NCBI GenBank assembly: GCA_028279595.1
Contig: JANQNK010000006.1
Location: 137,951 to 201,950, forward strand
DNA length: 64,000 nt
DNA from: Thermoplasmatota archaeon
GTDB lineage: Archaea > Thermoplasmatota > JAKEGO01
Direction: 5' to 3'
Positions 1 to 61,020 of the stretch are shown piece after piece (positions within the stretch are counted from its first letter, which is position 1; each line of letters starts with the position of its first letter). Under the pieces are notes generated by a model. That model was not told the DNA's origin, did not search any database, and worked only from the letters and a program-made list of their open reading frames with translations. A program made the position numbers and the translations under genes.

Positions 1-1075
1 GCGAGCTGAGCATCTCCTCGGTGCCCTCGAAGCTCAGTCCCGACAGCTTCAGCTCCCCCACGTGGGAACGTATGTTGACGTCCCTCCTGTCGTAGAACTC
101 GGGGGTTGTCCTGGATACGACGACCATCTTGAGGTCCTTGCCCGAAAGGGCCTCGAACATCTGTCCGAAGAAGCCGGCAAGCTCATCGTTCGCCTTCTCG
201 TAGTTGTCGAAGACGAAGAGCGATGGCACGTCGCCGAGGTTCTCGCCGATGAGTTCGATCGCCTCGTTGGTCTGGAACGATGACCTCGAGATCATCTTCT
301 TGAGCTCCCTTGAAGCGTTTAGCGAGAAGAACTCGGCAAGCCTCGAAAGGATGCTCCTGATGGTGTCCCATTCCGTGACGTTGCACCACAGTACGCTGTA
401 GTCGCTGGTGAACTCGTCGATTACCTTGGCCAATAGAGTGGACTTCCCGATCCCGGTTATCCCCGTGATGACGAGGACCTTCCTCTCGGATATGATCTTC
501 CTCACGGACTCGAGTTCGCGGTCTCGTCCGATGAAGTTGCGTGGCTTTGGGGCATCGCTCAGCATGTGGACGCGCGTTGACATCTCCTTGTCCTCGGAGA
601 TGAACTTCTCGAGAGCCTCCATCTGAACGACATCCTTCCCGTCGTTCGCTACCACAAGGACGGTCAATGGGGAGACACCGCCTCCCAGTCTCTCTACGAG
701 GGTGAAAATGGGGACGTCCTCGACCTCGTCGCCGGTCCTTATCTTGATCTCCACGGCTTCGAGCTTCTCCTTGATGTCCTTCGCCTCGTCGATACCCTTC
801 ATGGTGAGGAAATAGATGTTGACCCGTCTCATGTGGCCTTCGACCATTCCCGTACGGACCTGAATGAGTTCGTCGTTGACGAGTCCCTTGAGCGAACGGG
901 GGACGTGGTTCCAACGGATGCCCACGGCGTCCGCTATGCCCTTCTGGGACAGGTCGTGGGGAAGAACTCCGAATATCTCGGTCTGCGACTCGTCTGAGAC
1001 GTACCTTTCCGCAGGAAACTCGGAAAGATGGAGCAGTATCTTCTCCTTTACCGTAAGCAAGCTCTTCTCCGTCAT
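1..1075 (-). CDS. Winged-HTH + STAND-type P-loop NTPase regulator (3' end runs off the window)
   Basis: Absent from the ORF track. Manual translation from ATG 1075: MTEKSLLTVKEKILLHL...LSQKGIADAVGIRWNHVPRSLKGLV (HTH), then FIGRDRELE, Walker A GITGIGKST, Walker B LFVFDN and VVVSR. The frame stays open to position 1. Confidence 0.85.
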   Translation of the reverse strand, partial: MTEKSLLTVKEKILLHLSEFPAERYVSDESQTEIFGVLPHDLSQKGIADAVGIRWNHVPRSLKGLVNDELIQVRTGMVEGHMRRVNIYFLTMKGIDEAKDIKEKLEAVEIKIRTGDEVEDVPIFTLVERLGGGVSPLTVLVVANDGKDVVQMEALEKFISEDKEMSTRVHMLSDAPKPRNFIGRDRELESVRKIISERKVLVITGITGIGKSTLLAKVIDEFTSDYSVLWCNVTEWDTIRSILSRLAEFFSLNASRELKKMISRSSFQTNEAIELIGENLGDVPSLFVFDNYEKANDELAGFFGQMFEALSGKDLKMVVVSRTTPEFYDRRDVNIRSHVGELKLSGLSFEGTEEMLSS

Positions 1076-1193: not shown

Positions 1194-1931
1194 TCAATCA
1201 AGGGGCCTGTACTTGACGGTCGGTGTACCGTCTGTCTTCTCATTGCCGTCGAGGGGAATGACCACGGCCTCCTGGGCCTGTTCCTCGAACGGGACCTGCT
1301 CTGCCTGTATGACGTTCTGGTCCGCTCCCGGGGGATGTACGACCGGGCCGCCGGCCTGATATTCTTCCGCCGGACGGTCCTCCCTCGGTGGTTCGTTGCC
1401 CGGTTGCGATTCCATGAATGTGGGGGAATGGCCTTGCTGCTGGGGCTGCGGGGAAACAACTGCCGGCTGCGGCTGCTGGACCGCCTGCTGGGGCGGTTGC
1501 GGTGCGACCTGCTGTTGTGGCGCCGGCGGTCGGGGCTGCTGGGTCGGTGCAGGCTGAACCGGCTGGGGTGGTTGTGGGGTCCCCCTCCTAAGTTCGAGCG
1601 CCTCCGCCTTCAATCCCTCGACCTGTATCTTCAATTCGTCGATGTTGTCGTGGAGATTGGCGATGATCTCGACGTCCCGGACGTGCCTGTCCTTGAGCCG
1701 GGCGATCTCCTCGTCACGCTCCCTGATCTGCTTGGTGATGACCTCCTGTTGGGCGCCCGCCTTGGCAGCATCGATCCCGCCTCCAGTCCTGAGCCTCTCT
1801 ATCTCGGCCTCCTTGGCTGCCAGTATGTCCTTGAGCTTCGCCAGTTGAGAATGGATATCAGGACGCTTCGGCGGTCCAGCGCTCTTCTCGGTGAGCGAGC
1901 GCATCTCCTCTTCTTCAACGATCCTGATCAT
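1194..1931 (-). CDS. Coiled-coil protein with Pro/Gln-rich low-complexity tail (last gene of the Zn-finger/coiled-coil operon)
   Basis: Track ORF 1194..2024, start reassigned to ATG 1931 (MIRIVEEEEM) behind a GGTGA SD. Heptad-rich N-terminal half followed by a PQ-rich tail. Confidence 0.8.
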   Translation of the reverse strand: MIRIVEEEEMRSLTEKSAGPPKRPDIHSQLAKLKDILAAKEAEIERLRTGGGIDAAKAGAQQEVITKQIRERDEEIARLKDRHVRDVEIIANLHDNIDELKIQVEGLKAEALELRRGTPQPPQPVQPAPTQQPRPPAPQQQVAPQPPQQAVQQPQPAVVSPQPQQQGHSPTFMESQPGNEPPREDRPAEEYQAGGPVVHPPGADQNVIQAEQVPFEEQAQEAVVIPLDGNEKTDGTPTVKYRPLD

Positions 1932-1944
1932 GTCCTGATCACCG

Positions 1945-2763
1945 TCAGACCTTTCCGGCGCCCCTGCAGTTGGGACATACCTCTTGGACGATGCTTCCGT
2001 CCTTCTTCCTAACGCCGATGACACCCTCTCCTCCGCAGACGGGGCAGATGGCCTGTTCCCCGATGTCCTCGGGTATGGGTATCGTCTCGGGTACCTCGGC
2101 GACCTCCGCCGGGATCGGAGCCTCCTCCTGCGGTTCTGGGGCGGCTTCCGCGCCCTTTACCGTTTCCACCGTCTGGGCCTTCTCATCCTGTTGCTTGGCA
2201 CCCAGGATAGATCCTGATCCTTCGGGCTTTCCACCGAGGAGTCTACCGCGCGACTCGGGTTGTGCCGGTGCAGCCTCCTCGACCGGAGCGAAGACCGGGG
2301 TCGGTCCCGCCTGGGGCTTCTTCATCGTGTCGCTCATCTGATGGAGCTCTCCGGTAAGATCGGATATCCGCTGTTCGAGCTCCTCCTTGTAAGCTGTGGT
2401 CTTGTCGAGGATCTCCTTGTCGAGCTCGATCTTCTTGTCCCTCTCCGTGATCAGTGCTTTGAGGTCCTGTATCTCGCCCTTGAGCGTCTCCAGGATGCCA
2501 GGGTCGGTCTCTGCGGCCGGTGGGCCGTCCTTGGGAGCTGGAGCCTTGGCCTTCTCCTGCTCGAGCGCGGCCTTCGTCGCGTCGAGCTCCTCCTGGAGCT
2601 TGGTGTTCTCGTCCTTCATCGTCTTGAGCTCCTGGATCGCCTTGTTGAGCTTCTCCTTGAGGTTCTCTACGATGTCGGTGATCTGCTTCTTGAGCTTGAG
2701 TTGCTCAGACGTCTTCTCCTGCTTCGACCGCTCCATCTCGTCCTCGGTGATCATCCTGACCAT
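1945..2763 (-). CDS. Coiled-coil protein with C-terminal DnaJ-type CxxCxGxG zinc finger
   Basis: Start reassigned to ATG 2763 (MVRMITEDEM) behind GGAGGG. Ends CPVCGGEG...CPNCRGAGKV. Confidence 0.85.
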   Translation of the reverse strand: MVRMITEDEMERSKQEKTSEQLKLKKQITDIVENLKEKLNKAIQELKTMKDENTKLQEELDATKAALEQEKAKAPAPKDGPPAAETDPGILETLKGEIQDLKALITERDKKIELDKEILDKTTAYKEELEQRISDLTGELHQMSDTMKKPQAGPTPVFAPVEEAAPAQPESRGRLLGGKPEGSGSILGAKQQDEKAQTVETVKGAEAAPEPQEEAPIPAEVAEVPETIPIPEDIGEQAICPVCGGEGVIGVRKKDGSIVQEVCPNCRGAGKV

Positions 2764-2776
2764 TCCGACCCTCCAT

Positions 2777-3571
2777 TCATGTTCTCCCAGTTCCACCGCA
2801 CCGCGGACATGAGACCTCCTTCTCGGCGTCCCCGTCCTGCACGATCACCTTCTTTCTCCCCTTGCAGAGGTCGCAGCGTTTCGACCTTCCAGCCAGGGGA
2901 GGCGCTAGGTTCAGCACTATTGTGTCGTTAGTGCCACTTTCCTTATTTAAACTTTCCAACTGCTGCTTGGCCTTCCTGAGCTCTGCTACGATAGCGCTGG
3001 ACTTCGTCTTGAGCTCATCGTATCTCGCAGTGTGCTTCTGACCATCCTTCCTGAGCTTCTCGTTCTCGACAGTCAGGTGCTTGATCCTCTCGATCGCAGC
3101 GGGGTCGGGCCCCGATTGGGTTGCCGTCGATGGCGACGCCCTCAACGACTCGACCTCCGCGAGCAGGTCCCGTCTGATCTGCTCGTACTGGGACTTGATG
3201 CCCTCGAACGAACGTATCTGCTGGTCCCTGTCGGTTATCATACGCTTGAGGATGTCGATCTCCTTCTCTTTCTCGGCGACGCTCTTCGTGATCGCCTGTA
3301 TCCTCTTCTGCATCTCCCCTACCTTCTGCCTGAAGGATTCGGGTATCTCGCTCTGCGCCTTGGCCTGACGGATCCTCGTGACCGCCCATTTGAGCTCGTT
3401 CTGAAGCGTCTCCTTGGCCGCCGCGCTCTCCTCGAGGTCGGTCCTGAGCGAATTGATCTGATTGGTCAATGTATCGATGGTCCGAAGATGGATCTCCTCC
3501 TCCGCCTTGCCCTTGGCAATGAGCTGCTTGAGACTCTCGACCTGGGCTTTAAGCGGATCGGACCCTGTCAA
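2777..3571 (-). CDS. Coiled-coil protein with C-terminal DnaJ-type zinc finger
   Basis: TTG start overlaps the upstream TGA (TTGA). Ends CDLCKGRK...CPRCGGTGRT. Confidence 0.8.
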   Translation of the reverse strand: MTGSDPLKAQVESLKQLIAKGKAEEEIHLRTIDTLTNQINSLRTDLEESAAAKETLQNELKWAVTRIRQAKAQSEIPESFRQKVGEMQKRIQAITKSVAEKEKEIDILKRMITDRDQQIRSFEGIKSQYEQIRRDLLAEVESLRASPSTATQSGPDPAAIERIKHLTVENEKLRKDGQKHTARYDELKTKSSAIVAELRKAKQQLESLNKESGTNDTIVLNLAPPLAGRSKRCDLCKGRKKVIVQDGDAEKEVSCPRCGGTGRT

Positions 3572-5025
3572 ACTATACCAGCTCCGTCACACCTAGGACA
3601 CGTCTCCTCCCTGACGTGGCCGTGCCTGTCCTTGACCCCGACCTTCCCGAGGCCACCGCATACCGGACAGACCTTGCCCAATGTGTCGCTCACCGGCACC
3701 TCGGCCGGCGGAGGGGGCGGTGCGGCCGCCTTGGCCGGAGGTGCCGCCTGTGCCTCTGCCGGCGCTGCGGGAGGCGGTGGTGCCGCGGCCTTGGTCTCCA
3801 GCCTCTCGTTGAGCCTCTGTACGGCGGTCTCGAGGGCAGTGTTCCTTCCGTTAGCCTCGTCGAGCTCCTTCCTGGTCTTCTCGAGCTCGGCGTTGAGTCC
3901 GTCCCTCTCGGCCATGATCATCTTGACGTCGCCGCTCTCCGCGGCGATCTTCGCGTTCTCTGCCTCCAGGTCCGCGATCCTCTTGTTGAGGCCCTCCCGT
4001 TCGGTCTTCCAGGAGGCTTCCTTCTCGGTGAGGGTAGCCTTGACGGCCTCCATCTGCTCCGACTCTCCGGCCTTGTCGCCCTGGAGCTTGACGTATTCCT
4101 GCTTGACGGCCGCGATGGTGTCCTTGACCTCCGTGAGGTCCTTCTTCAGCTTGGCGTTCTCCTCCTTGAGCTTGACGACCTCAGCGGAACCGGCCTTCTC
4201 GAGTTCAGCGATCCTCATGTCCCGCATCTGCACCTCCTTGTTGAGGCGCTCGATCTCGCGGGTAAGGCCCTGTACCTTGTCCGTGGAACCCGAGCTCTGC
4301 TTGACGATCTTGGCGTTCTCGGCCGTGAGCCTCTCGACCTCCCGGGTCAGGGCGTCCGCCTTCTCCTTGACTGCGGCCGAATCCTTCTGGACCTTCTCGT
4401 TCTCGGCGGCGGATATCTCCGCGGCCTCCTTCATGGATGCCAGCGAGGCCTCGGCGGTCTCGATCCTCTTCGTGAGCTCCGCCCTCTCCTTCTCGACGAC
4501 CCCGATCGCGGTCTTCATCTCCTCGATCTCGTCGTTCTTCGTCCTCAGGGAGGTCGTGACCTTCTCCAGCCTCTCCTTGTCAGCGGTCCTGTCCTTGTCG
4601 GCCTTCTCGAGGGCCTTCCTGGCGGCCTCGAGACCGGCCAGCGCCTTCTTCGCTTCCTCGAGCTCGGCAGCTGCCTTTCCTGCCTTCTCGAGGTCCTTCT
4701 GGAGCTGATCGTTGGTGGCCTTGAGCCCCTTCAGGGTCTCCTTGGCCGCACCGACCGTCTTCTTCATCTCCTCCCTCTCCTTGTCGAGGGAGTCCACCTG
4801 TTTCGTAAGGTCTGCGATCCGCTTCTCGGAGGCTGCGGTATCCTTCTTGGCCGCATCGGCGTCGGCGGTCATCTGTTCCACGACCACTTTTAGGCGCGAT
4901 ATCTCACGCGCCCTTTCCTCGATCTTCCTCTCTGATTCGGATATCCTCTCCTTCAGTTGGAGGTTCTCAGACTTCTTCTCCTCGTCGAAAAGGTCCTTCT
5001 CGTCCTCGGATATCACCTTGATCAT
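3568..5025 (-). CDS. Long coiled-coil protein with Pro/Ala linker and C-terminal DnaJ-type zinc finger
   Basis: About 400 aa of K/E/A-rich heptads, ATGA overlap with the upstream gene. Begins MIKVISEDE and ends CPVCGGLG...CPRCDGAGIV. Confidence 0.88.
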   Translation of the reverse strand: MIKVISEDEKDLFDEEKKSENLQLKERISESERKIEERAREISRLKVVVEQMTADADAAKKDTAASEKRIADLTKQVDSLDKEREEMKKTVGAAKETLKGLKATNDQLQKDLEKAGKAAAELEEAKKALAGLEAARKALEKADKDRTADKERLEKVTTSLRTKNDEIEEMKTAIGVVEKERAELTKRIETAEASLASMKEAAEISAAENEKVQKDSAAVKEKADALTREVERLTAENAKIVKQSSGSTDKVQGLTREIERLNKEVQMRDMRIAELEKAGSAEVVKLKEENAKLKKDLTEVKDTIAAVKQEYVKLQGDKAGESEQMEAVKATLTEKEASWKTEREGLNKRIADLEAENAKIAAESGDVKMIMAERDGLNAELEKTRKELDEANGRNTALETAVQRLNERLETKAAAPPPPAAPAEAQAAPPAKAAAPPPPPAEVPVSDTLGKVCPVCGGLGKVGVKDRHGHVREETCPRCDGAGIV

Positions 5026-6173
5026 ATCTTACCCGCTCCTTTGCATCTCGGACACATCTGTTCGTTCAGTTTTCCGCGTTTGCCCCTCACCATCACGCGT
5101 CCCTTGCCCGAGCAAACCGGACAATCCTTCTTCCCCTTCTTCGAGCGCTTTCCACCCTTCTTCTTGACGGGCTTCCTGGGGGAACTATCCACCTTTGGAG
5201 GTCCCGGAGGTTGTACGTCGGGTTCCTCGGGCTCTTCTTCCTCGGCACCCTCGAGTATCCCCTTGACGTTGACCTCGTTGTGACACCATGGACAGATGGC
5301 CTTTTGAACCTTCCTGTCCACGATGAACGTACCGTGGCAGTAGGGGCACTCCACCTCGGTATCGCTCCTCGTCCTGCGTTCTGGATTGAGAGTGAACTCC
5401 ACGGTCCTGGACGCATACGGCGGTATGTTCACATACGCCTCCGACGGCACCGGAATGAACCCTTCCGGGGAGAATGGTTCTATGTGCAACGTCTCGAGGG
5501 ACCGTTCCGACTCGTTCCTTATCTTGATCCGATAGACCAGGCCCTCACCCTTCTCGGTCAGGACCGTCGATATCGAGGCGTCCCTGCCCGGGACGAACTC
5601 CTCGGCGGTGTACGCATCGGTGTTCATCGGATTGAGCTCGAATATCCTCGCCTCTTCGCCGAAGGGCTTGAGGCTGATGACCTCGCTCTGCGGGGTCGGG
5701 ACGAATATCGAGTTGGATGTGTCCGGAATGATGTTGATCCGGTTCAGGGGCTGCCCGAGGTTGTTTCGAACGAGGACCTTGTAGAGGATCCTGTTCTCGA
5801 CCCGGGCGAAGACCGTCTTGATAGTGAGCTCGCGTCCGGGCTTCGGCTTGACCATGGTCGCTGCCACGGCGCGTTCCGCCAGGGAGATGCACTCCTCGAA
5901 CTGGTTCTCCTTGAGGGCGCGCTTGGCCTTCGTCAACAGGTCCTTCGCGCTGTTGACATCGATGCGTGCGTCCTGTGCCTTCAGGATCGAGCGTTCGGCG
6001 AATTCGACGGCACCCTTGGCGCTGTGCGCCATGCTCAGCTGTTCACGGACCATGTTCTCGGCCTTCTCGGAGAGTCCCCGTGCCCTTTTCGGCTTTTCCT
6101 GGTCAAGGGCCAGTCTCGCCTTAGCGAGGACCTCCTCAGCCTCCGAGGTGTCGATATCGATCCTTTCGTCCAT
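5022..6173 (-). CDS. Cytoplasmic adaptor-like protein: helical repeats, two Ig-like beta-sandwich repeats, Zn ribbon and DnaJ-type Zn finger
   Basis: Tandem PGRE...YKVLVRN...FELNP and PGRD...YRIKIRN...FTLNP repeats, CPYC...CPWC, terminal CPVCSGKG...CPRCKGAGKI. GGAGG SD, no signal peptide. Confidence 0.85.
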   Translation of the reverse strand: MDERIDIDTSEAEEVLAKARLALDQEKPKRARGLSEKAENMVREQLSMAHSAKGAVEFAERSILKAQDARIDVNSAKDLLTKAKRALKENQFEECISLAERAVAATMVKPKPGRELTIKTVFARVENRILYKVLVRNNLGQPLNRINIIPDTSNSIFVPTPQSEVISLKPFGEEARIFELNPMNTDAYTAEEFVPGRDASISTVLTEKGEGLVYRIKIRNESERSLETLHIEPFSPEGFIPVPSEAYVNIPPYASRTVEFTLNPERRTRSDTEVECPYCHGTFIVDRKVQKAICPWCHNEVNVKGILEGAEEEEPEEPDVQPPGPPKVDSSPRKPVKKKGGKRSKKGKKDCPVCSGKGRVMVRGKRGKLNEQMCPRCKGAGKI

Positions 6174-6174
6174 G

Positions 6175-9100
6175 TTACTCCTCCCCCTCTTTTACCGATT
6201 CTATGAACGCCTTGGCATGCATGTAGGCGCCCTTTGCCGTCTCCAGCATGGAGACGATGATGTATACGGCTATAAGACCGAGTATGAGTGCGATGAGCGG
6301 ATAGATGAAGGTCGGGAACGGCAGCAGGTCAGGAGTGAGGAAAAGGCCTTCGAGCATGGTGCCGATCGATCTCCCCGAGGATAGGCTCAGGAAGAATATG
6401 CCGAACATCAGGCCGCATATGGCGAGCGTGCTGATGTATGACTTCGTTCTGATCCCGGTGATGATGGTGTAGAGCGGGACTATCATCACGAGCATTATGT
6501 ACGCGAGCGGAAGGGCAGCCGCGTCGATCGCCGCGCTCTCGACCGGCAGGAGGACGAACAAGGAGATCGCCGTCGTCACGACCAGACCCTTGATGAGGTG
6601 CTCGTTCCGCCGCTGTTTGAGGCTCACGCGCTTCGCGTTCGCCCTTAGCATCGCGAAACCACCGAGAAGTATGATCGGCAGTGCGATGAGGACGATCGGG
6701 TTGGGGCGTTTGCTGACCTTTATCTCCGTAGAAACGACGTTGTTCCTCCGCCGTCCCGGGTCACTCCCCTCATAGCCTTCGCTGGCCGCCTTGATCGTCA
6801 ACGTGTGTCGCTCCGAACGGTTGAACCAGTCGAGCTCCGGGATCTCGATCTCGATTGCGAGGGTCCTCTCCCCCTCCATGGGAAGGTCGATCTGGACCTC
6901 GTGGATGAGGTCTCCGTCCCAGTAGACCTCGATCGGCAGGTTCGAGAGGGTGTCGATGACCGGGTCCCCCGTCTCCCTGCCGGTGGACCTAACGGTGAAC
7001 GTTACGGTGAGCTCGTCCCCCTCCTGTGCGATGTCATCGATGTCCACGTCCGAGATGGATATGTCTGGCGAGAGCGTGATTATCAGGAAGTTGAGCTCCT
7101 CGGGCGTCGGCAGTGCGTCGACCCAGACGTTCACGGTGAAGTCGAGTTCGGAGAAATGGGGTATCGAGGGTGCGGAATGTATCGTCGCATAGATGATCCG
7201 GTCCTGACCGGGAGCCAGCAGGAAACTGGAGTTGTCGAGCTCGATCTCCCAACCGGAATAGAAGGTCGTGGAGTTGAGCGTGAACGTCCGCTGTACGGGG
7301 AACTCGTTCCTGATGAGGATGCCGTAGTCGATCTCGGAATCCGGGAATATGTAGACGAACGGAGGTCCGTAGGGCATGACGAACGAGGTCTCGACCTCGA
7401 TGCGTACGTCGTCGTATCCCGGACCCTCGACCACCGAACCGGACACGTCTACGTAGTTGATCGGGTCGTTGAGGGAGTTGGACGGCGGCCTGATCGTAAC
7501 GTAGACCGTAGTGCTCTCGTCGAAATCGAGGGTGACCGATGGTCTGTCGAGCCACACGGTCCAATCGCCGGTCTGAGAGACGTCGAGTGTGACGTTCTCT
7601 CGGCCGTTGCCGGTGTTTATTACGTAGACAGGGACGATCAGAGGTTCGTTGGGTATTACCTTCCACACGTCGCTCCCGCCCCAGATGTCCAGGTCCCGTG
7701 TCTGGAGGTCGACACCCGTGACGAGGTCGACGATGACCTTCCCCCATTCGGAGTCGGACACCTTGCTGTCGTGCTTCGATGTGAGGTTCAGGATGATGGT
7801 ATCGCTGCTGTCCGCGATGAGTCCGTACGGGATGTACACCCTGATCTGGAGTATTCGGGTCTCTCCGGGATCGACGAGGTCCAGGGCCTCGGGATTGATC
7901 ATGTCGGTCTCCCAATCTGAGGTCGACACGATGTCCTCGTTGTAATTGTCTATCCCGTTCCCAGTATTGTTGAATGTGAAGTTGAGGACAGTCTCCCCTC
8001 CAGGGGGCCCCCTCGCCGTCATCACAGGGCGTATCTCGACCCCTCCGACCTGGGTCAGCGATATCGTGCATGTGGAAAAGTCGCTCTTGGTCGGGTCCGC
8101 AGTGGAGTTGACCTCGACGACGATGATGTAGACCTCGTCCTCGAGCGCGTCCTCCGGTATCTGTACCCTCAGGGTGATCGTCGTTGTCAGACCTGCTAGC
8201 ACCGAACCGGTGATATCCCCCGGTAACAGGGAGATCGAAAGGCTCTGATTGTTCACTGTCCTCAGGCCGAAGGAGTCCTCGCCATTGCCCGTGTTGGTCA
8301 CGATGAGCTCCATATCGACAGTGTCGCCCGGTTCCGCGGTGGTAGCGTTCTCCTCGGGTTCGATGGTAACGGAATAGCCCTGAAGGACGTTTATGTACGA
8401 GAAGGCGCTATCGCTCGTGGTCCCATCACCACAGGTGGCGGTGAGGACAAGGGTCTCGTTCGTTCCGACGGGAGTTCCTGGATTGATGGTGACGTTCACG
8501 ATGATATCCACATTCTCGTCGTATTCGAGGTTCACCAGCGGCTGTGAATCGACGACGAAGGTCAGATTGGTCGATCCGTCGATCGAGAACGAGTCCATGT
8601 CGTTCCCCTGGTTGCGGATGTTGAACGTGAACTGGACAGCTTCCATCGGTTCCCCGGACTGGATAACTGGATCGATCGCGGTGACCTCGACACCGTAGAC
8701 CTGGGGGATCATCGCCACGAGGTCGACCACCCGGTACTTCGAGCTGTCGGCGTCGGACTCGGCCCGGACAGTGATGTGGGCCCGCCTGTTGTCCGGCCTG
8801 TCCCTCGATTCCATCGTAATCGTTATTATCTCAGATTCGCCATTATCAAGTGTAATGCCGTCCGGAGGTGCTCCATTCTCAACATTTACCAGCCAGTTTG
8901 GGGGCGCTGTTGAGTTGGTAATGTAGAACGTGTCAGTACTCTCGTAGTTCGCCACGTTGGTCACGTTGACGAGGAATACCGCGGTCTCTCCTATCCCGAT
9001 CTCGACGGGAGATTCGCTGATGAGCCTGATGTCGACGTCATTGGATTCGGAGACGTCGATGGAGGCCTGGGATGACGCGTCGACGTAGATGTCATAGTCG

Positions 9101-9786
9101 GATGTCACCTGGATACGCAGCGTTGCGGTGGTGTCGGCGGCTATGACGTTGTTCCACTCGGATCGCGGCACGATGACGTCCACGCTGACGGAGATGGAGT
9201 CACCCATGTCGAGGTCCTCTATCTTGTCGTCGAACGTGACGTTCCAGACCCTGTACTGGGTGTCGATGCAAAGGGCCTCGACTGTGAAGTTGTCCATGGC
9301 ATTCCCGGTGTTCCACACGGTGAAGTTGATGGTGATGGTCTCGCCGGGATCGCCGAAGAACGTGCCTGGAGTGTTGATAGCTACTCCGGCCACGGGAAAG
9401 ACCCTGGTCGTGGCCTGGGCCGTGTCGGTGGCGCTCGACGCCTGGGATATAGCCTGGAGGGTGACGTAGTCGACGGTGTTGGCCTGTGTCCCTGCCGGGA
9501 TGGAGACGATGACCTCGATATCTTCCTCGATCTGGCCGGATGATAGTGTGATGTTCGATGGCTGGACCACAGTCCAACCCCGGGAGGAGTTCGCCACGAG
9601 ATCGTAGGAATCGGTTTGGCTACCAGTGTTCTCCACATCGAAGTGATGGGTGATGTTCGCGCCTGGAAATCCCCATCCGCCACCTCCATCCGGTCCCCGT
9701 ACATCGACGTCGTACTGCGCCGCCCCGGGACCGCAGAGGAACAGTGCGAAGAAAACGACGCACAAGAACAACCAATGCAGCCTCAT
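6175..9786 (-). CDS. Secreted multi-Ig-repeat (COG1470/CARDB-like) surface protein with C-terminal polytopic membrane domain
   Basis: Signal peptide, repeated N(T/Q)GNxxD(S/N)F Ig-like units, a CARDB-like PDISIS unit, about 5 hydrophobic segments at the C-terminus. Confidence 0.85.
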
Positions 9787-9985
9787 ACCTTCACCTTTTC
9801 GCGATACGCCTGGACTCCAAGTTATTCAATTCTGTCTATATATAGTTTGTTTGGTGGTATTTTCCGCGTTCCGTGACAAATCGAGAATCACCAGCGTCCG
9901 GTGGTTTCCGTGGTTTATTGGTCACGTTCGTATCCCAATCACTATCTTTTTATCCGGCCGGGGCCTTCTGCGGAACGGTGATCCA

Positions 9986-42590: not shown

Positions 42591-45500
42591 TCACTCTATC
42601 GTGAACTCGTCCTCGCAACTCGGACACTTGATGTCCACCGGTCTCTCCTTCGGAATTATCAGGTTGTGTCCGCACGTCGGGCATGGAGCCACCATGATCT
42701 TCCCTATGTCCATGACCTCGGTCTCGATGGCCTTCGGTGCCTCAGGCTCGGGCTTCTTGATCGGGGCCATACCTGGAACCGTGGGTAGTTCAAGGCGTGG
42801 CGGCGGTGTGGCTGGCACCTCGGGAAACGCTTCGACCGGCGCTGCGGCCTCGGCCGGAGCTGCTTCGGCAGGTGCTGCTGCTACCGCGACTGCGGGTGGT
42901 TCCTCACCCTCTGAGAAGGCTGGTGGTCCCTCGAACTCGACCACGGCCTCGTAGACCTCCGCCTCGATGACGTCTACAGGTGCTGTCGGGGAGATCTCCT
43001 TCGCCATCTCCTCGGCCCTCTTCTTCTTCCTCTGTCTGGACATGCCAAGGAGAAGGACGACCACCACGACGGCGATCACAATTCCGGCGACGATCATGAT
43101 CGGGAACTCCGATTCATCGTCGCCCTCTTCGACGTAGATCGTCGTTTCCACGGAACTGATCTCCTCGAAGGTGTTCCCGTAAGCCTTCACCACGATATCG
43201 TGCTCTCCCTTAGGGAGCTTCGTCCTGACATAGAAGGTCATGCCGTCGATTGACGTCCCGTTCTGCCAGGACATCTCGTATCGCGTTTCGTCCACGAAGA
43301 GGTAGACCTCCGTTGGGAAGACGTTGGGCAACTCGTAGGTGAATATAACGGTAAAGGTGATCGTGTCGTCCTCGGTCGGGAAGTCGGGACTGTAGGTGAG
43401 CGAGCTGAGCTCGGGTGGCTCGGATATCGGTATGAAGACGCCGAAAGTCGACAGGTCCTCGAGGTCCGCTGTAATCGTACGGTCCTCGGTGTCCGTCTCG
43501 GTGTCGTCTATCGGCATCCACGCGGCGCCCACGAGGTGATAGATCTTCGCATCCTCGATGCCGTTGGTGTCATCGAGAGATGATGGATAGGTTATCTCCA
43601 TCCTTACGTCACGATACTCGCCCGCTCCGTACGGGACTACCTCCACGTATGCGTCGAGCGAGATCACTCCTGTCGGGATGTCGTCATCGTAGAAGCCGTC
43701 GCCTCCGAGTATGATCCTGTTTCCGACCCACGTGAGCTTGATACTGAATCCTCCCGATATCGAGAATTCGTTCGTCCTCTCCAAGAGGGTGGGTGTACCG
43801 GACATGGTCACGATGGGCCCGAGGTTCCCCTCGTCGTCGATAGCCCTCACCGCAAAGAAGTATGTTCCGTTGTCGGGGAGGACGACATGTATCCATTCGT
43901 TCTCTCCGGGCTCCTTCGGGACAAGGTCGTTCGTCACGTTGGTGGCGATGTCCCAGCGTCCCTCGCTCGTGATGTCCTCGTTGTCGTAGCGAATCAGATA
44001 TGCGGTAGCGCGTCCCTCGTCACCGTCGTCTCCCGGGGCGGTCCACGTGAGGTTCAGGGTGTCTCCGAAACCAACGTCCTCCGCGAGTGGACTGCCGATG
44101 CCGTCGGGTTCGATGACGTCGCCGATGGTGATCGGTCCGTCGCTGTATATGAAGACCTCGTTCTCGACGTCCTTCAGCTTGAACATGATGTAGTAGGACC
44201 CCTTGTCGACGCCGTCGGTGTCCCACTTGAACTCCGTCCTCGATTCCGTGAGAGCGGTCTCGGTGATCTCCTCGAACCCGCCGTTCGACCTTTCATCGTC
44301 CGTATCGTAGAATATGCGGACCTCGACCTCGTCACCGTCCTCGTCTGACACGTTGAAGTAGATCGTGAACTCGTCGCCCGGGTCGATCATGTCGTCGACG
44401 CCGTCGGGCTGGTCGATCTCGACGGTCGGGGGAACGTTCGGGGATCCCTCGCGGATCGGAAGGACGTACTCGGCATAGACCTTCGTCGGGTCCTCGTTCA
44501 CACCATCCTCGATGGTCGCATACAACCAGTAATCGCCTTCCGGTATGTCGGTGACGTCCCATTGATAGTCGTCCTTAGGCTGTCCGTTGTCATCCAGGGT
44601 GTCCTCGTAGAACACGCCGTCGTGGAGCTTGGTACCGTCGAAGTCCTCGTCGTCATCGTCGTAGTATATCCTGATCGTGGCATTGTTGTCGGGATCGTCA
44701 TCCTCCCACTGGATGAAGAACCACGACTGCTCCCCCTTCCAGACGGTATCGTCCACACCATCAGGGTTCGTGAAGCTGATGAGCGGTGGAACGTTCTTCC
44801 ACACCGTGACGTTGACGAGGTATTCGGGAGATACTCCGTCGCGCCTGTCGGTCGAGTTCGCCTGGAGCGTGTAGTTGCCCGGCTCCTCGTCCCGCGTGTC
44901 CCACGAAACGGTCCAGTTCCATCTGTTCCACGCGACCTTCTGCACCGGAACGAACAGAGTGTGCTGGTTCTGGACCTCGCCGTCCTCGATCCAGAACACG
45001 GTCAGGTCCACGGAGTCCAGCTCGTCGTCCGGGTCTATCGTGTAACCGGTCACGTCGACCTCACCGCTGAGGCGATCGGATTCCTCGGGGAAGGTGATGA
45101 ACGTCCGCGGTAGCGTATTGACGTTGTCGATCGATACGTTCCGACTGAGGACCTCCGAGATGTTCCCTCCGTCGTACGACATCGCATGTATGGTGTAGTT
45201 GCCGTCCTCGATCTCCGTCGTGTCCCATTCGAACTCCCAGAACCAGTATGGGTCCTTCGATCCGGATGTATCCTCGGCGTCCTGCCAGTCGCTTCCCTCG
45301 GGCTCCACTCCCCGTTCGGTGATCGCAACGTAGACGTCCGTCACGTTCCCGTCGTGGTCGGGATCCCTCGCAGTGCCGTTGATGGTTATGATGCCGACGA
45401 GCTCGTCGTCCTTCTTCGGCTCCTTTATCGAAACAGTGGGGTCATCGGGATTGTCAAGTGATACGTTGATGGTGACCGCCCTCGTCAGGTTCTCTCCGTC

Positions 45501-48500
45501 CCGAGCACGGGCATAGATATCGTAGACGCCATCATCGGTCCTGTTCGGTGACATCGTGTCCCACTCGTACTCCCACGAGAACCATGAGCCGTTCCCCGAT
45601 GTATCGTCCGCCTGGACCCAGTCGTTGAGGGAAGGCGACACGCCCTCGGGCATTATCGCGACCTCGACCTCGTCCATGTCGCCCTCTGGATCGTCGGCGC
45701 GGCCTTCGATCATGACAGTACCGTTCACATAGACATCATTCTCTGGCGCAGTGATGGTACAGTTCGGAGCCTGGTTGTCGACCAGTTCCACCGTTATCGT
45801 GAACACCTCGGAATACTCGAAGTTGTTGTCCTCCGAACGAACGTGGATATCGTGATCGCCTGGACTGTACAATGAGGTGTCCCAGTCGTAGGTCCAGTCC
45901 ATCGTACCCTGACAGGATTGCCATGACGACTCACTGTCGAACCTTATCTCGACGAGGATCACCTCGCCGTCGTTGTCGGTCGCGTTCCCAAGGATGACGT
46001 AGCTAGATGAACGGGAGATGCTTGCCCCGTCCTCGGGATCGAAGATCTGTACCCACGGTTTCTCGTTGGCCGGTTCGACCTCGTCGAACCACTCGGTGTG
46101 GCTGGTCGTCATATCGACGTCGCGCTGTTCGGACCATTGGGGTGTCTGGACATCGACCGTTGTGGTGTTCTGGGCAATCCCCAATTCACCATGGATCCTA
46201 TCTGTCACTATGATCCAACGTACGTAACCATCTGAATTGGTTGCAGGATCGGTCCCACCATATCCGTTCGAAGCGTAGATGACATCGTCATTGTCCTTGA
46301 CCTGGACATCGGCGCCTTCGAGGTCCTGGCCGTTCGTGTCGTTCACGTGGATGAGCAAGTAGTTCATCACGACCCATTGCCCATCCTCGACAGAGATCCC
46401 GCCAGAATAAGAGACGTTCAGTGTGGTTACGTTCGAATTGTCAACTTCGGTAGCTTGCTGAGATGAGATGGTCGAATTCTCGAGATAGACGTCAGTATCG
46501 TTATGGAGTATCAGTGCATATCGTGTATCGTCGATGGTGGATCGGACCATGCGGGTGTTATCTGTTTCGTATATGGTCATGCCATATACAGTGTCGATCA
46601 ACTCAACATTCGTGAGGTTTAACGAGGTCGAATTCTGAGAGTAAACTCCGATCCTGTTCCTTGAGAGGTCCCCTCTTATCGAGACCTCGTCACAATAGAC
46701 GGCCAGGATACCCTGTTGGTTGTTATGGACCACAACATCGACCATCGCACTGGAATTGACGATCCCGATGTAACCGTAAGTTCCATTGATGTAGGTCATA
46801 TCAGGTTGAGAGACGAGATATATCATCTCATGACCATCGACCGAATTACTTGTGTCGATGTCATGGAGATAATGAACCAGGCTCGTCCCCTCGACACCAA
46901 AGTTGTAACTATCTCCCTCAAGGCTCACGTTCCTCATGATGATCGATGTACTTTCGTTTAGCTTGATTCCTAAATATATGGAAATTACTTCGATGGATTC
47001 AAGGACCATATTTGATGAATTAACACAGTTGACTCCCAACGTATCACTCTTGATGTTGGAAGAAGTTATGTTGACGAAAGACGAATCGATAGATTCTATC
47101 CCGAACCTTGGCTGGTCGATATATATCTGTTCGAGATGGATCATTTCAGATCTCTCGATAACCACACCGTTCTCGGAGGTCGAAATGTTACATGACAACA
47201 TAGATATGTTCAAGGAATTGAAGATGTACAATCCATCGTCGTCTCCTGAAAGATCACATTGAGAGATCGTTACGTTCCCACAATCGTCAAGATAGATCCC
47301 AGTATCTACAGAATCGAAGGTATTGTTGAATATTACTATTTCGTCAACGTTATAGTAGCCAAGACCTTCATCATTGATATTGGTGAGTGATAGATCCATT
47401 GCTGTGATATTCCGTCCTTCAACGACCTGAATACCTGTGTCGCCCCTTTCGAATTCTGTACCTTGGATCAATACGTTCTCGCTATTGTTGATCATAATTC
47501 CATCATCGAGCGCCCAGAGTATGCTATTGCGAATCGTAAGATTATCCGAATCGACAGCATGGATCCCTGTTCCAGTGTTGAAATTGTTAGTGATATTGAC
47601 CGATTCGATGGTTACATTGTGGGATGAAATCGTTAATAGTACGATATCGTCAGAAGAAGAAATTTCTGAAGTGGATCCGTTTCCGAGAAGAGTGACCTCG
47701 AGGGTGATGTTCAGTACCTCACGATAGAGGCCATCCCAGATCCGAATCACATTTCCAATTGTTGCGTTATCCAGGCCCTTCTGGATCGTATCGAAGGGAT
47801 GCACACGGGAACCATCCATATCTGGATCCCCCGCATTGTCGTCGTCCACGTACAATATTCCCTCCTCAGACATGTTTACTACAAGCTCTTCGACATGCGA
47901 CCATGACATGTTGATCGTCAGGTTCGCCTCGGTCCCCTCGGCCATCGCATATGCTTTCGTCTCGTTCTCGATAGCAGTGCTCGAACCGTCGTAGATCCGA
48001 TCAGTCACAAGGACCCAGTCGATGTAACCGTTCTTCGCGGTCTTCGGATCGGTGCCGTTGTAGCCTGCGGAAGCATAGACCGACTCATCATTGTCGGTGA
48101 TGTTGACGTCGGCGTTATTCCATGGCTCGTTGTACTGGTTGATGACGCGGATCTGGAGGTAGTTCTTAACTGTCAGGGTCGATGAGATATCGACTGAGAC
48201 ACTGGAGAAGTCCGAATTGATTGTGGTCGCGGATCCCGTGGTAGCGACCGTAATGTCCGAAGATGTCGAACTAGAGATCGTCGTGTTCCCAATCCTACCC
48301 CCTATGGTCGAGTCGACGATTATACCACGATTCGAATCCGATATCGAACAGTTCTCTACCAGGAAGTTGTCAGAGAGAAGACTGAATGCCATCCCGTCGT
48401 TCGAAGATTCCGTCACATTGGTCGACAGGACCTGGACGAGGGATGACTGAGACGAGAAGATACCAAAGGTGCTGTTGATGATCATACAACCTGATACGAC

Positions 48501-51500
48501 GGTCTGGTCGCTATCAGATATCTCGATGCCATCATCACCGTGATCCTCGATCGAAACGGCCGAAATGTAGGCTCCGGGCACATCCTCGAGGTGGATGCCG
48601 TCGTTGGTGTTCTTTCTGATCGATCCACCGGTGATCATCACATTATCAGTATCGAGCATCCAGATGCCGGTGTTCGTGTTCCTGTTAGCGTCGATGTTGG
48701 TGATGTTGATCCACTGGGATGCTTCGGAACGGATGCCGTAGGAGCTATCCTCCGCCGTCGAATTGATGATCTCGACATCATGGGAGCCATCTATGTATAT
48801 TCCATACTCAGAGCCTGCTACTAGGACATCATGAATGGTCACATTCGTCATCGTGTTCGTGTCGATGGCAGCGTCGCCGGCTCCAGTGCCCGAGTTCGTG
48901 ATCCGGACACCACTGATCGTAACATCATTTGCATACAACCAGAGGACGTCACCGGTACCGAGACCGAAAATGGTCGTGTTCGCCGATCCGTTCCCAATGA
49001 TCCAAAGCCCAGTATGGTTGACAGTGACGTTCTCGTCGTAAGTGCCAGCCCAAACGCGGAGAGTGTGATTTATTGTAGCGTTCTCCATCCCTCTGAGAAT
49101 GGTATCGAATGGATGGTCGGGGGATCCGTCCATCTCGGGATCGCCTGTGTTGTCGTCATCGACGTACCAGGTCGGACCAGCATATGGTTCGATGTAGGTG
49201 AACTTCTCAGTGTGGCTCGTGGACATGTTGATATCACGATATTCGGTCCAGTTGCCAAACATCATCTCAATTGCTGTAACGTTCTCAATCGCAGTCGAGT
49301 TATCAGTGTAGGTCCTATCGGTGATGACAATCCAATGGGCCGTTCCGTTGGCACCTGTCTGTGGATCAGTTCCCCCATATCCATCGGTGGAATATACAGT
49401 TACGTTGTTATCGGTGATATGGATGTCAACGCCTTCTGTCGCAACGTTGGTCGCCTTCACAACGGAGACATGGAGGTAATTCTGAACGATGATATTCGAA
49501 TCTCCCCACACATTTACCGTGGTGAATGACGTGTTCAAGGTGGTAATGGATGACCCACCACACCAGATGTCATCACCCCAGTCATCTCCATCTTCTTCAA
49601 GTGTCGAGTTGACGATTTGGACTGAACTGTTGTCATCCAACCAAAGCGATTGAGAGAAATCGATGACAGAAATGTTCCGCATGTAATTATCGGGCGATCC
49701 GTCAAGGTAGATCCCTGTGACATCGCTGTTTCCACTGATAGAGGTGTTCACGATGGAGGAATCCCACATCATCACGTTGTTCGAGTCCCAATATTCGATC
49801 GCATTTCCGTGTGAATCATCCACGATGATGCAATCAAGGTTCTGAATGGAAATGTTCGTTGAGAACCACACAAAAAGACCATGCTCTGCCCGAACCGAAT
49901 TATCGACCATAACAACATTTTTAGACCGATTAACGAAGTATCCTCGCCAACCTGATGAGACCTCACAATTGCGGATCTCAACGTTCTCCGAATCACTGCT
50001 TACATTGATCCCATATGTTACGTCCTTGAATGTACAATTGGTGATCAACATGTTGGTTGCTTCGAGCATGATTCCAGCGTGGGAACTGTCGAACCTACAG
50101 TTCGTTACCGATATGTTTGTGATATTCCAATGTCCTTTTATTCCAAACCTCAATGCTCTCGATTCTGTTTTCGTGTGATCGAAATCAATATCATGAAATG
50201 CGAATCCATTCGATCTAGACATCTGGATACGACCGTATATCGTATTCTTCTGGATCCGGGTCCTGTCACCTCTACTATGTTCAATCGATTTGAGTTCTGA
50301 GTTCACGAGAACAGAGTCGTTCGTATACATCCTTAGAGTGATGTTCGTTTTTACATCGTCAAATGTACAAGAATCACCGTAGATCCAGATGTAGCCATCC
50401 TCAGTGTAGTTCAGATTCATGCTCTGAAGTGTGACGCTTTCGTTTACGATATCGAAGGTATATGTATCAACGAGCACCTCTTCGGTTCCATTCCCGATGA
50501 TGGTAACTGAAACGCTCACATTGACCAAGTCTTCGTAGTAGTACCCTTCATAGACAAGGATCGTATCCCCGTCCTCAGACGCATTGATCGCGTCCTGGAT
50601 GTGCTCGAAGTCCCTCCATGAGCCGTTGTCGTCGTCGACGATCCAGGTATTGGAATCATCGAGTGACATGAGAGGATATCTATCGTAAACATCTCCAGGG
50701 TCATCGATTTCGTATGCCTTATCTCCGATGTTATCTCCATCCGTATCCGTACCATCATAGTCGGACCAGTAATTACCATATGATTCGTAATCCCAGGTAC
50801 CGTTCTCTCCACCAGCACCCTGGGAGAATTCACCACCATTATCGATGAACCTGTTATGATGAATCTTAACCGAAGATGGTGAGCCTGAACCAGTAATTTG
50901 AATTCCATAATCCCCGTTGTCTGAGAATTCATTATCATGAATCATAAGAGAATCGAAATTCGTGAACTCGGAAAAAAAGATATGAATACCACGGTCGTTT
51001 GATGAAACTATTTCATTTTCGTTAAGGATGATAAGATCAGAATCGTGGAGCCTAATTCCATCAAATGATGAATTCGTAATATTATTCAATGAGATGTTTC
51101 CAGAAATCATCCTTGTATTTTGAATCCCATTGCCACAGCGATATATCGAATTCAGAGTGATGTCGATATCTTCATTGTCGTCAGTGAGGATTCCCCATCC
51201 AGAATCATTAATGATGTTATTGGATATTGTAATGTTATCGGAATCCTCGATATTTACTCCGACATTATTGTTGGATAGCATTGAATTGTTAACTTGAATC
51301 ATCGTCCCATGATCAATGATTAAACCGTTCAGACTTGACGAGATACTATTATTATTACAATAGATTGATTCTGACCTCAAGATCCTTATCCCTGCATAGG
51401 TAATATTATCATTATTGATACTAGTTACGTTGCAATTCTCTGAGTAGATGAGATCAATGCCAATAATACAACTTGAGATTCTCTGATCAGTGACGGTGAT

Positions 51501-60985: not shown

Positions 60986-61020
60986 AGAGTCATCTCCGGA
61001 TTGGACCATTGTAACGTCTG

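Follow-up and report, generated by a model that had tools for sequence, protein, structure and literature searches.

This report concerns six closely packed genes, here called A to F, that lie head to tail on the minus strand between positions 1194 and 9786 of a 64,000-nucleotide stretch of DNA from an uncultured archaeon of the Thermoplasmatota (contig JANQNK010000006.1, positions 137,951 to 201,950; in the following, the window). They encode a surface protein with a membrane anchor (A), its presumed cytoplasmic partner (B) and four predicted coiled-coil proteins (C-F) whose ends carry shared motifs. In six other families of the phylum, the archaellum (arl) operon opens with homologues of A and B, and what is described here is an archaellum-locus envelope protein with a coiled-coil scaffold, not a categorically new system. 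Our preferred reading, tentative and held at a little short of even confidence, is that the cluster is an order-specific elaboration of an archaellum-associated anchor between envelope and cytoplasm, in which modular protein ends assemble a coiled-coil layer beneath the membrane. Such a layer may be an undescribed scaffold that anchors or organises the motor. An earlier interpretation made from the letters alone (the sequence-only reading) had seen here an undescribed system and a free-standing module. The first idea stands insofar as no described family fits C-F or the cluster as a whole. Because A and B lead the archaellum operon elsewhere, however, these two genes are in part assigned to a known system, and the free-standing module had to be given up.

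The comparison was carried out in a sample of 401 genomes of the phylum Thermoplasmatota. A full-length homologue of B, defined by a match to the B profile at E<1e-50, was found in 33 of these genomes, spread over eight families. Twenty-one complete loci were fetched outside the host's order, from the families f9, f16, f18, f35, f44 and f45, and in all 21 contexts the genes followed each other on one strand as A-B-arlB-arlCDE-arlF-arlG-arlH-arlI-arlJ, with gaps of about 20 nucleotides or with overlapping genes (in a few loci crude picking of open reading frames (ORFs) missed B, which was placed there by profile search). In detail, the pair is followed by an archaellin with class III signal peptide, ArlCDE (FlaC_arch plus Arch_fla_DE) and ArlF/ArlG, then by ArlH (KaiC-like), ArlI (T2SSE) and ArlJ (T2SSF). 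The arl-linked A homologues measure 1282-1675 residues and have 4-6 predicted C-terminal helices, and the B homologues measure 322-585 residues. In none of the 21 contexts did B end in a DnaJ-type zinc hairpin, and no coiled-coil genes bearing such a finger were present at these loci.

In a maximum-likelihood tree of B, the arl-linked sequence from genome G021 is sister to the finger-bearing clade of the host's order (support 100/99), and every other branch is arl-linked as well. Judging from this topology, the linkage of A and B to coiled-coil genes would most simply be a derived state. On contig 4 of the host genome the arlB-arlCDE-arlF-arlG-arlH-arlI-arlJ operon is complete, and it includes neither A nor B. 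In the case of G001 and G002, which belong to the same order, ArlD/E were also found elsewhere in the genome, thus in three of three genomes of the order.

Two further observations concern the arl operons themselves. In G021 (locus L016:934-5085) the places of ArlF and ArlG are held by proteins of 642 and 715 residues with an ArlF/G-like N-terminus and PKD domains, where the usual size is 140-165 residues. At the end of the archaellum operon on contig 4 of the host, a gene convergent to arlJ (L028:469-4092) encodes a 1207-residue surface protein that has CarboxypepD_reg, PEGA and PKD domains and is unrelated to A.

Protein A begins with a signal peptide, followed by about nine immunoglobulin (Ig)-like/CARDB domains. 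Model NF041740 ('choice-of-anchor T') was matched at 159.6 bits over five stretches (cut-off 70), which makes A a member of this family; its name stands for a repeated extracellular domain and carries no functional information. Ig_VWA7, FixG_C and CARDB also scored above their respective cut-offs. After the five-helix membrane anchor (Table 1), the C-terminus is predicted to form a short, cytoplasmic amphipathic helix. Along its entire length A is homologous to the large proteins encoded at the head of archaellum operons in relatives, and an alignment of 12 tails of the A family showed the same anchor architecture in arl-linked and coiled-coil-linked forms. The possibility that the C-terminal helix of A is part of the helical repeat of B was dropped, as the hidden Markov model of the B family finds none in A (E<=1). 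Altogether, domain, helix and heptad predictions concur with the order of parts that the sequence-only reading had drawn, in which a polytopic anchor exposed at the surface is followed by an adaptor in the cytoplasm and by coiled-coil proteins.

At the junction between A and B in G002 (L015:4541-4612), A stops at TAG and B runs on in the same frame, with about 20 conserved residues preceding the first ATG, GTG or TTG of B. This could be explained by read-through to an A-B fusion, by a non-canonical start or by a sequencing error.

The adaptor B was modelled with AlphaFold2 from 22 sequences, with a mean predicted local distance difference test (pLDDT) score of 77.7. The model consists of a four-helix N-terminal domain (residues 10-105), two beta-sandwiches (116-182 and 199-264), a four-cysteine (C4) ribbon (276-297), a disordered basic linker (311-347) and the terminal hairpin (359-373). 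These folds are of a protein-binding type, tandem beta-sandwiches with a helical domain, and no catalytic domain is among them. In Foldseek the sandwiches resembled ASH/SPD-2 domains (CEP192), transglutaminase barrels, PapD-like chaperones (Caf1M/DraB) and ciliary ASH-domain proteins, with E 6e-5 to 1e-3, identities of 8-16%, low query template-modelling (TM) scores of 0.13-0.16 and a root-mean-square deviation above 15 Å over two domains. Single sandwiches reached Z 6.6-7.0 in VIA-align, which is within the range of common arrangements. No sequence-family match of B to PapD-like, major sperm protein (MSP) or ASH families was found, and peptide binding by these sandwiches is suggested by analogy only. 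A fold assignment for the helical domain was abandoned, since a wide VIA-align search returned generic helical bundles (Z<=9).

The C-terminal tail of B varies between lineages. It is acidic in f16 and f9, has a helical domain and a Lys-rich end in G021, carries long extensions in f35, f44 and f45, and ends in the DnaJ hairpin in the host's order. From these sequences, the tail may be an exchangeable connector.

The N-terminal helical domain of B (about 100 residues; residues 1-108, window positions 5850-6173) is also a repeat unit of giant proteins. Its profile matched 1356 proteins at E<=1e-3, many of them 1300-7274 residues long with 10-42 tandem copies, and the repeat is also seen elsewhere in the host genome (C10:57960-58259). 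It has no Pfam family match.

As read from the sequence, A to F form one operon. The A/B junction is TAA-C-ATG, with 1 nucleotide between stop and start. The B/C junction is an ATGA overlap and the C/D junction a TTGA overlap. The D/E and E/F spacers have 13 nucleotides each with Shine-Dalgarno-like GGAGG or GGTGA (GGAGG in D/E). For E and F internal starts were taken, backed by the N-termini of orthologues. Re-reading of the ORFs and junctions thus agrees with the earlier description of six co-oriented genes with gaps of at most 13 nucleotides or ATGA/TTGA overlaps. A candidate promoter box upstream of gene A (Table 1) was read straight from the sequence, a sigma-70 scan being irrelevant for archaea.

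In C-F, a heptad scan predicts coiled coils, which are followed by Pro/Ala- or Pro/Gln-rich linkers. In C the head is followed by a coiled coil of about 400 residues, then by a Pro/Ala linker and the zinc hairpin at the end, and the rod of C would measure about 60 nm if the coiled coil is continuous. D lacks the head (MTGSDP...; MNSGDP in G002) and consists of coiled coil and terminal zinc hairpin. In the case of E, an AlphaFold2 monomer model shows helices at residues 7-73 and 88-148, a disordered stretch at 151-237 and the hairpin at 249-262. F has a head, about 100 residues of coiled coil and a Pro/Gln-rich tail but no finger, and the same layout is found in G002.

Family searches of A-F were made at E<=0.1 (for C, on the best 25 of 32 matches). 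As the sequence-only reading had stated, no J domain, SMC/Rad50 ATPase head or enzymatic domain was found in A-F above cut-off. SMC and Rad50 models reached 20-60 bits against cut-offs of 300-1087, at coiled-coil positions only, and JetC and LmuB models likewise matched coiled-coil positions only, far under their cut-offs. Filament (PF00038) scored 17.6-22.7 bits against 40, and Rod_CreS (PF19220) 17.3 against 100. Membership in SMC-like, Rad50 or crescentin families was rejected on these scores. Regarding the archaellum, no FlaC_arch, Arch_fla_DE or Arch_flagellin is among the matches listed for A-F, and the same Arl models do detect the true arl genes on contig 4. C-F were also considered as diverged ArlC and rejected as such: no FlaC_arch match is listed for them, and the true ArlCDE of the host has both domains.

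Within the otherwise variable disordered linker of E, all E orthologues share a motif GRLLGGKP..G.GSILG (window 2170-2240, residues about 172-190). A similar RRLLGTKP follows the head of the F orthologue in G002.

The most characteristic features of B-F are their ends. The finger C-x2-C-x-G...C-P-x-C-x-G-x-G closes B, C, D and E, with two residues between it and the stop codon, and the head pattern M-[IV]-[KR]-[VIM]-[IV]-x-E-[DE]-E, of strand-plus-acidic type, opens C, E and F. On re-reading, the fingers of four consecutive products and the three heads were found exactly as first quoted, and the exceptions noted then, a headless first finger protein (B) and a fingerless last gene (F), were confirmed, with D as a second headless protein. 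To describe the specificity of these motifs, the whole host genome was scanned as 12,016 six-frame ORF segments of at least 80 residues. The finger pattern occurs at the C-terminus of four segments, all in the cluster, and elsewhere only internally in two genuine DnaJ genes. The relaxed head pattern occurs at four start codons, three of them in the cluster. A finger profile built from eight tails has its best alignment with zinc centre II of Escherichia coli DnaJ (1EXK residues 29-61, E 2.8e-7), anti-TRAP coming second. Because the best alignment is to this zinc centre, the tail can be described as a single-zinc hairpin of DnaJ type.

Regarding charge, the heads are acidic and the linker and finger of B strongly basic. 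A basic finger as a general rule did not hold, as that of C is about neutral. Among E orthologues, identity was 91-100% in the finger and 75-100% in the head, compared with 44-82% in the coils and 37-58% in the linker. The two terminal motifs are therefore the most conserved parts of the proteins and under strong constraint.

G002 represents another family of the host's order. All six genes recur there in unchanged order; the corresponding four products have fingers and the corresponding three have heads (MIKVISAED, MIKVISEDD, VIKIIDDDD). This answers the check on synteny and on co-occurrence of heads and fingers, and the six genes can be regarded as a real module. The start of D is conserved and headless in both genomes (M-x-x-G/S-DP), and A and B are 31-36% identical between host and G002. 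In G001, A and a finger-bearing B lie at the end of a short contig. The finger profile is strong (E<1e-13) in only 3 of the 401 genomes, all of this order, and weak matches elsewhere sit inside ORFs of about 370-400 residues, presumably DnaJ judging from their size. A word-based search of 5.8 billion proteins added three B proteins (55-87% identity, all with finger) and four E proteins (40-68% identity), the latter from four metagenomic sources. Scans of genome contigs and metagenome contigs gave no further copy of the six-gene cluster, and leads from the ESM Atlas were all below 0.9 ('COG1470 family protein', Thermoplasmatota).

From these elements we put forward a mechanism for the preferred envelope-to-cytoplasm anchor. 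A would extend a long Ig-like stalk outside the cell, cross the membrane with five helices and hold B through its short cytoplasmic helix. In the host's order, A and B would have left the arl operon, and B would have gained its C-terminal single-zinc hairpin of DnaJ type. The hairpin that B shares with C, D and E, and the head shared by C, E and F, would be docking modules through which C-F assemble on B, and so on A, as a coiled-coil layer beneath the membrane. This layer would anchor or position the archaellum motor, like a polar cap or stator support, and the assembly would still serve motility in the host. Docking could be imagined in three ways: finger to head; heads onto the beta-sandwiches of B with the fingers clustering as in anti-TRAP; or all fingers onto one hub. 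The second rests on an analogy with PapD and MSP: ASH/PapD-type folds bind short extended peptides, so the heads could dock on B.

In a bolder version, which we consider improbable, C-F tethered via B to A would be the building blocks of a polar-cap-like sub-membrane lamella that anchors and organises the archaella, encoded in a single compact operon with an assembly code of zinc hairpins and acidic heads, and A plus B would be an unrecognised trans-membrane stator support in many Thermoplasmatota.

Compared with the known accessories of the archaellum (ArlC/D/E ring, ArlF/G stator, polar cap), A and B are co-oriented and tightly spaced with arl genes in six families, and the role proposed for A-F, motor anchoring between envelope and cytoplasm, corresponds to that assigned to ArlF/G, ArlCDE and the polar cap. 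However, the Arl families in Pfam have no sequence relation to A-F, the host cluster lies outside the arl locus, and the literature searched describes no archaellum part that is a multi-Ig protein with five helices, an adaptor with beta-sandwiches or a coiled coil tipped with zinc. ArlX of Crenarchaeota is a coiled-coil scaffold around the archaellum motor; C-F, unlike ArlX, have no membrane helix. With crescentin and other intermediate-filament-like proteins, with DivIVA/HubP and with ArlX, C-F have in common long heptad rods, absence of enzymatic domains and a presumed assembly at the membrane. The matches to Filament, Rod_CreS and SMC models, however, are sub-threshold and driven by composition, and crescentin and its kin, DivIVA/HubP and ArlX lack the conserved head and zinc-hairpin ends. 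A 2021 review gave the polar cap as being of unknown composition (PMC10117864), and a 2025 study lists the arl operon of Thermoplasmatales as arlB, C, D, F, G, H, I and J (PMC12448462). We found no description of the A plus B pair or of the zinc-tipped coiled-coil proteins in the literature searched, which left most subscription journals outside.

Several points weigh against the preferred anchor. All 33 genomes with full-length B are among the 133 of 401 with ArlD/E, but this co-occurrence overstates the evidence, because related genomes are not independent and because fragmented assemblies lose or miss adjacent genes together. In family f14, ArlD/E are present in 44 of 53 genomes and B in none of the 53; many archaellated families lack A and B, so that the pair is not a general requirement of the archaellum. 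In the host and in G002 the cluster is not beside any arl or che gene, and for a motility role in this order the argument is therefore one from ancestry. The order is moreover represented by three genomes only, all incomplete. Tomograms of Oxyplasma (Thermoplasmatales) showed no polar cap (PMC12448462). Finally, in the monomer model of E residues 1-6 are unpaired and form no strand against the hairpin, so the model predicts no head-finger contact inside one chain; as a test this is weak and decides nothing, and such an intramolecular contact was set aside as a candidate.

The first rival, which we rate as rather unlikely, supposes that the genes encode a trans-envelope cytoskeleton, tether or polarity scaffold that stands by itself and is unconnected with motility. 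Each hairpin would dock onto the acidic head of the protein that follows, along the series B, C, E, F, and D would be a branch or cap. The four fingers and three heads are indeed colinear with gene order, a pattern kept in both families, and they are the most conserved segments; the opposite charges of the heads and of the B linker and finger, and the physical separation of the cluster from the arl operon in the host's order, point the same way. Against it speak the 21 of 21 arl operons headed by A and B elsewhere and the occurrence of full-length B only alongside ArlD/E. Regarding the head-to-tail chain itself, which the sequence-only reading had proposed, D carries a finger in both genomes while lacking the head, so that a simple linear chain is left unclosed. 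The finger of C is near neutral, the model of E, for what this weak test is worth, lacks the contact, and the fingers could equally cluster with each other, as in anti-TRAP, or bind one hub.

A second rival takes A as a major surface-layer (S-layer)-like envelope protein and B-F as a general sub-membrane skeleton for cell shape and stability, the arl position reflecting local remodelling of the envelope at the filament. We hold this to be distinctly unlikely. S-layer proteins are typically single-anchored or lipid-anchored, whereas A is anchored by five helices and has a cytoplasmic partner of its own, and a general envelope protein would not be expected to show the distribution of A and B, which are not found in most families of the phylum, non-motile ones included. 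In its favour, A has Ig-like domains, as do many archaeal S-layer proteins. A 2026 survey of type IV filaments reports that arl loci of Methanococcales and Thermococcales encode multi-Ig proteins of S-layer-like type (arCOG05057) and proposes such a role for them; it mentions Thermoplasmatales once, in another context (PMC13705601). These proteins, compared here by description only, are like A large, extracellular, with several Ig-like folds and encoded in the arl locus. By the same descriptions, A is set apart by its polytopic anchor, an obligate cytoplasmic partner gene and its occurrence in Thermoplasmatota. Thermoplasmatales are without a regular S-layer, and the 2025 study raises how their stators are anchored as an open question (PMC12448462).

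A third rival, which appears very improbable, sees the DnaJ-type hairpins as chaperone modules, like the zinc centres of DnaJ or plant BSD2-type proteins, and the coiled-coil proteins as assembly factors or holdases, their clients being A or else secreted or archaellar subunits. It draws on the alignment of the hairpin profile to DnaJ zinc centre II and anti-TRAP and on PF00684, which is sub-threshold on all four tails (17.6-23.4 bits, cut-off 32.7). The likeness is that two CxxCxGxG repeats flank a beta-hairpin, in the case of anti-TRAP also in a module without J domain. The cysteine-rich region of DnaJ has four such repeats and two zinc centres, whereas here each protein has two repeats and one centre, placed at the extreme C-terminus of coiled-coil or adaptor proteins, with neither a J domain (PF00226 unmatched in A-F) nor the C-terminal substrate-binding domains of DnaJ. 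NCBIfam DnaJ models gave 14-19 bits against cut-offs of 338-377. Anti-TRAP (RtpA, NF058604/PF15777) gave 18.6-21 bits against 65, only the CxxCxGxG repeats matching 3LCZ, and it is a stand-alone protein of about 53 residues, compared with tails of 264-485-residue proteins here. Coiled coils of about 400 residues and conserved heads are foreign to known zinc-finger chaperones, and the host genome already has two complete DnaJ genes.

That the six are lineage-specific low-complexity genes which merely lie side by side, with no joint function, is hardly credible and already disfavoured: coiled-coil and Pro/Gln-rich sequences are of low complexity and fast-evolving, and no family match above cut-off exists for the coiled-coil proteins, but two families whose proteins are about 30% identical share gene order, starts, heads and fingers, the E orthologues of four further metagenomic sources have near-invariant termini, and four of the five junctions are translationally coupled.

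What braces the archaellum motor against the cell is not settled, especially in Thermoplasmatota, many of which have no regular S-layer. For the envelope-to-motor anchor preferred here, the conserved pair of A and B heading arl operons in six families is a concrete and testable candidate. The version of the host's order, with four coiled-coil proteins and two modular conserved ends, offers a simple model for membrane-attached scaffolds in archaea, and to tag structural proteins at their ends with the DnaJ zinc hairpin would be a new use of this module. If the link to motility fails, the cluster would still encode a coiled-coil assembly of archaea that is undescribed and limited to an order with few sampled genomes.

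Table 1. Coordinates in the window of the genes and motifs of the A-F cluster.
Feature	Position	Strand	Description
Candidate archaeal promoter, TATATATA box	9837-9844	minus	51-58 nucleotides upstream of the ATG of gene A
Gene A	6175-9786	minus	1203 residues, from the ORF list
Membrane anchor of A and C-terminal cytoplasmic helix (predicted)	6247-6834	minus	residues about 985-1180, five hydrophobic helices; hydrophobicity count
Gene B	5022-6173	minus	383 residues
Zinc hairpin of B	5025-5129	minus	CPVCSGKG...CPRCKGAGKI
Gene C	3568-5025	minus	485 residues
Head of C	4999-5025	minus	MIKVISEDE
Zinc hairpin of C	3571-3675	minus	CPVCGGLG..CPRCDGAGIV
Gene D	2777-3571	minus	264 residues, TTG start
Zinc hairpin of D	2780-2884	minus	CDLCKGRK...CPRCGGTGRT; first repeat degenerate
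Gene E	1945-2763	minus	272 residues
Head of E	2737-2763	minus	MVRMITEDE
Zinc hairpin of E	1948-2052	minus	CPVCGGEG..CPNCRGAGKV
Gene F	1194-1931	minus	245 residues
Head of F	1905-1931	minus	MIRIVEEEE

On the same strand, 118 nucleotides downstream of F, lies a gene for an 878-residue protein with winged-helix, STAND/NB-ARC-like NTPase and TPR regions (window 2-1075, minus strand; whole gene L029:16390-19026). It is not found at this position in G002. A defence system was considered and rejected: PADLOC matches were composition-driven and to coiled coils only, with none for A, B or F, and the winged-helix STAND-TPR ATPase is not downstream of F in G002.

Further along the window, two giant surface proteins are encoded on the minus strand at 42591-52481 (3296 residues) and 52592-61009 (2805 residues), each with one membrane helix. 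Their cytoplasmic tails end in a C-x2-C...C-x2-C ribbon, similar to the internal CPYC...CPWC ribbon of B.

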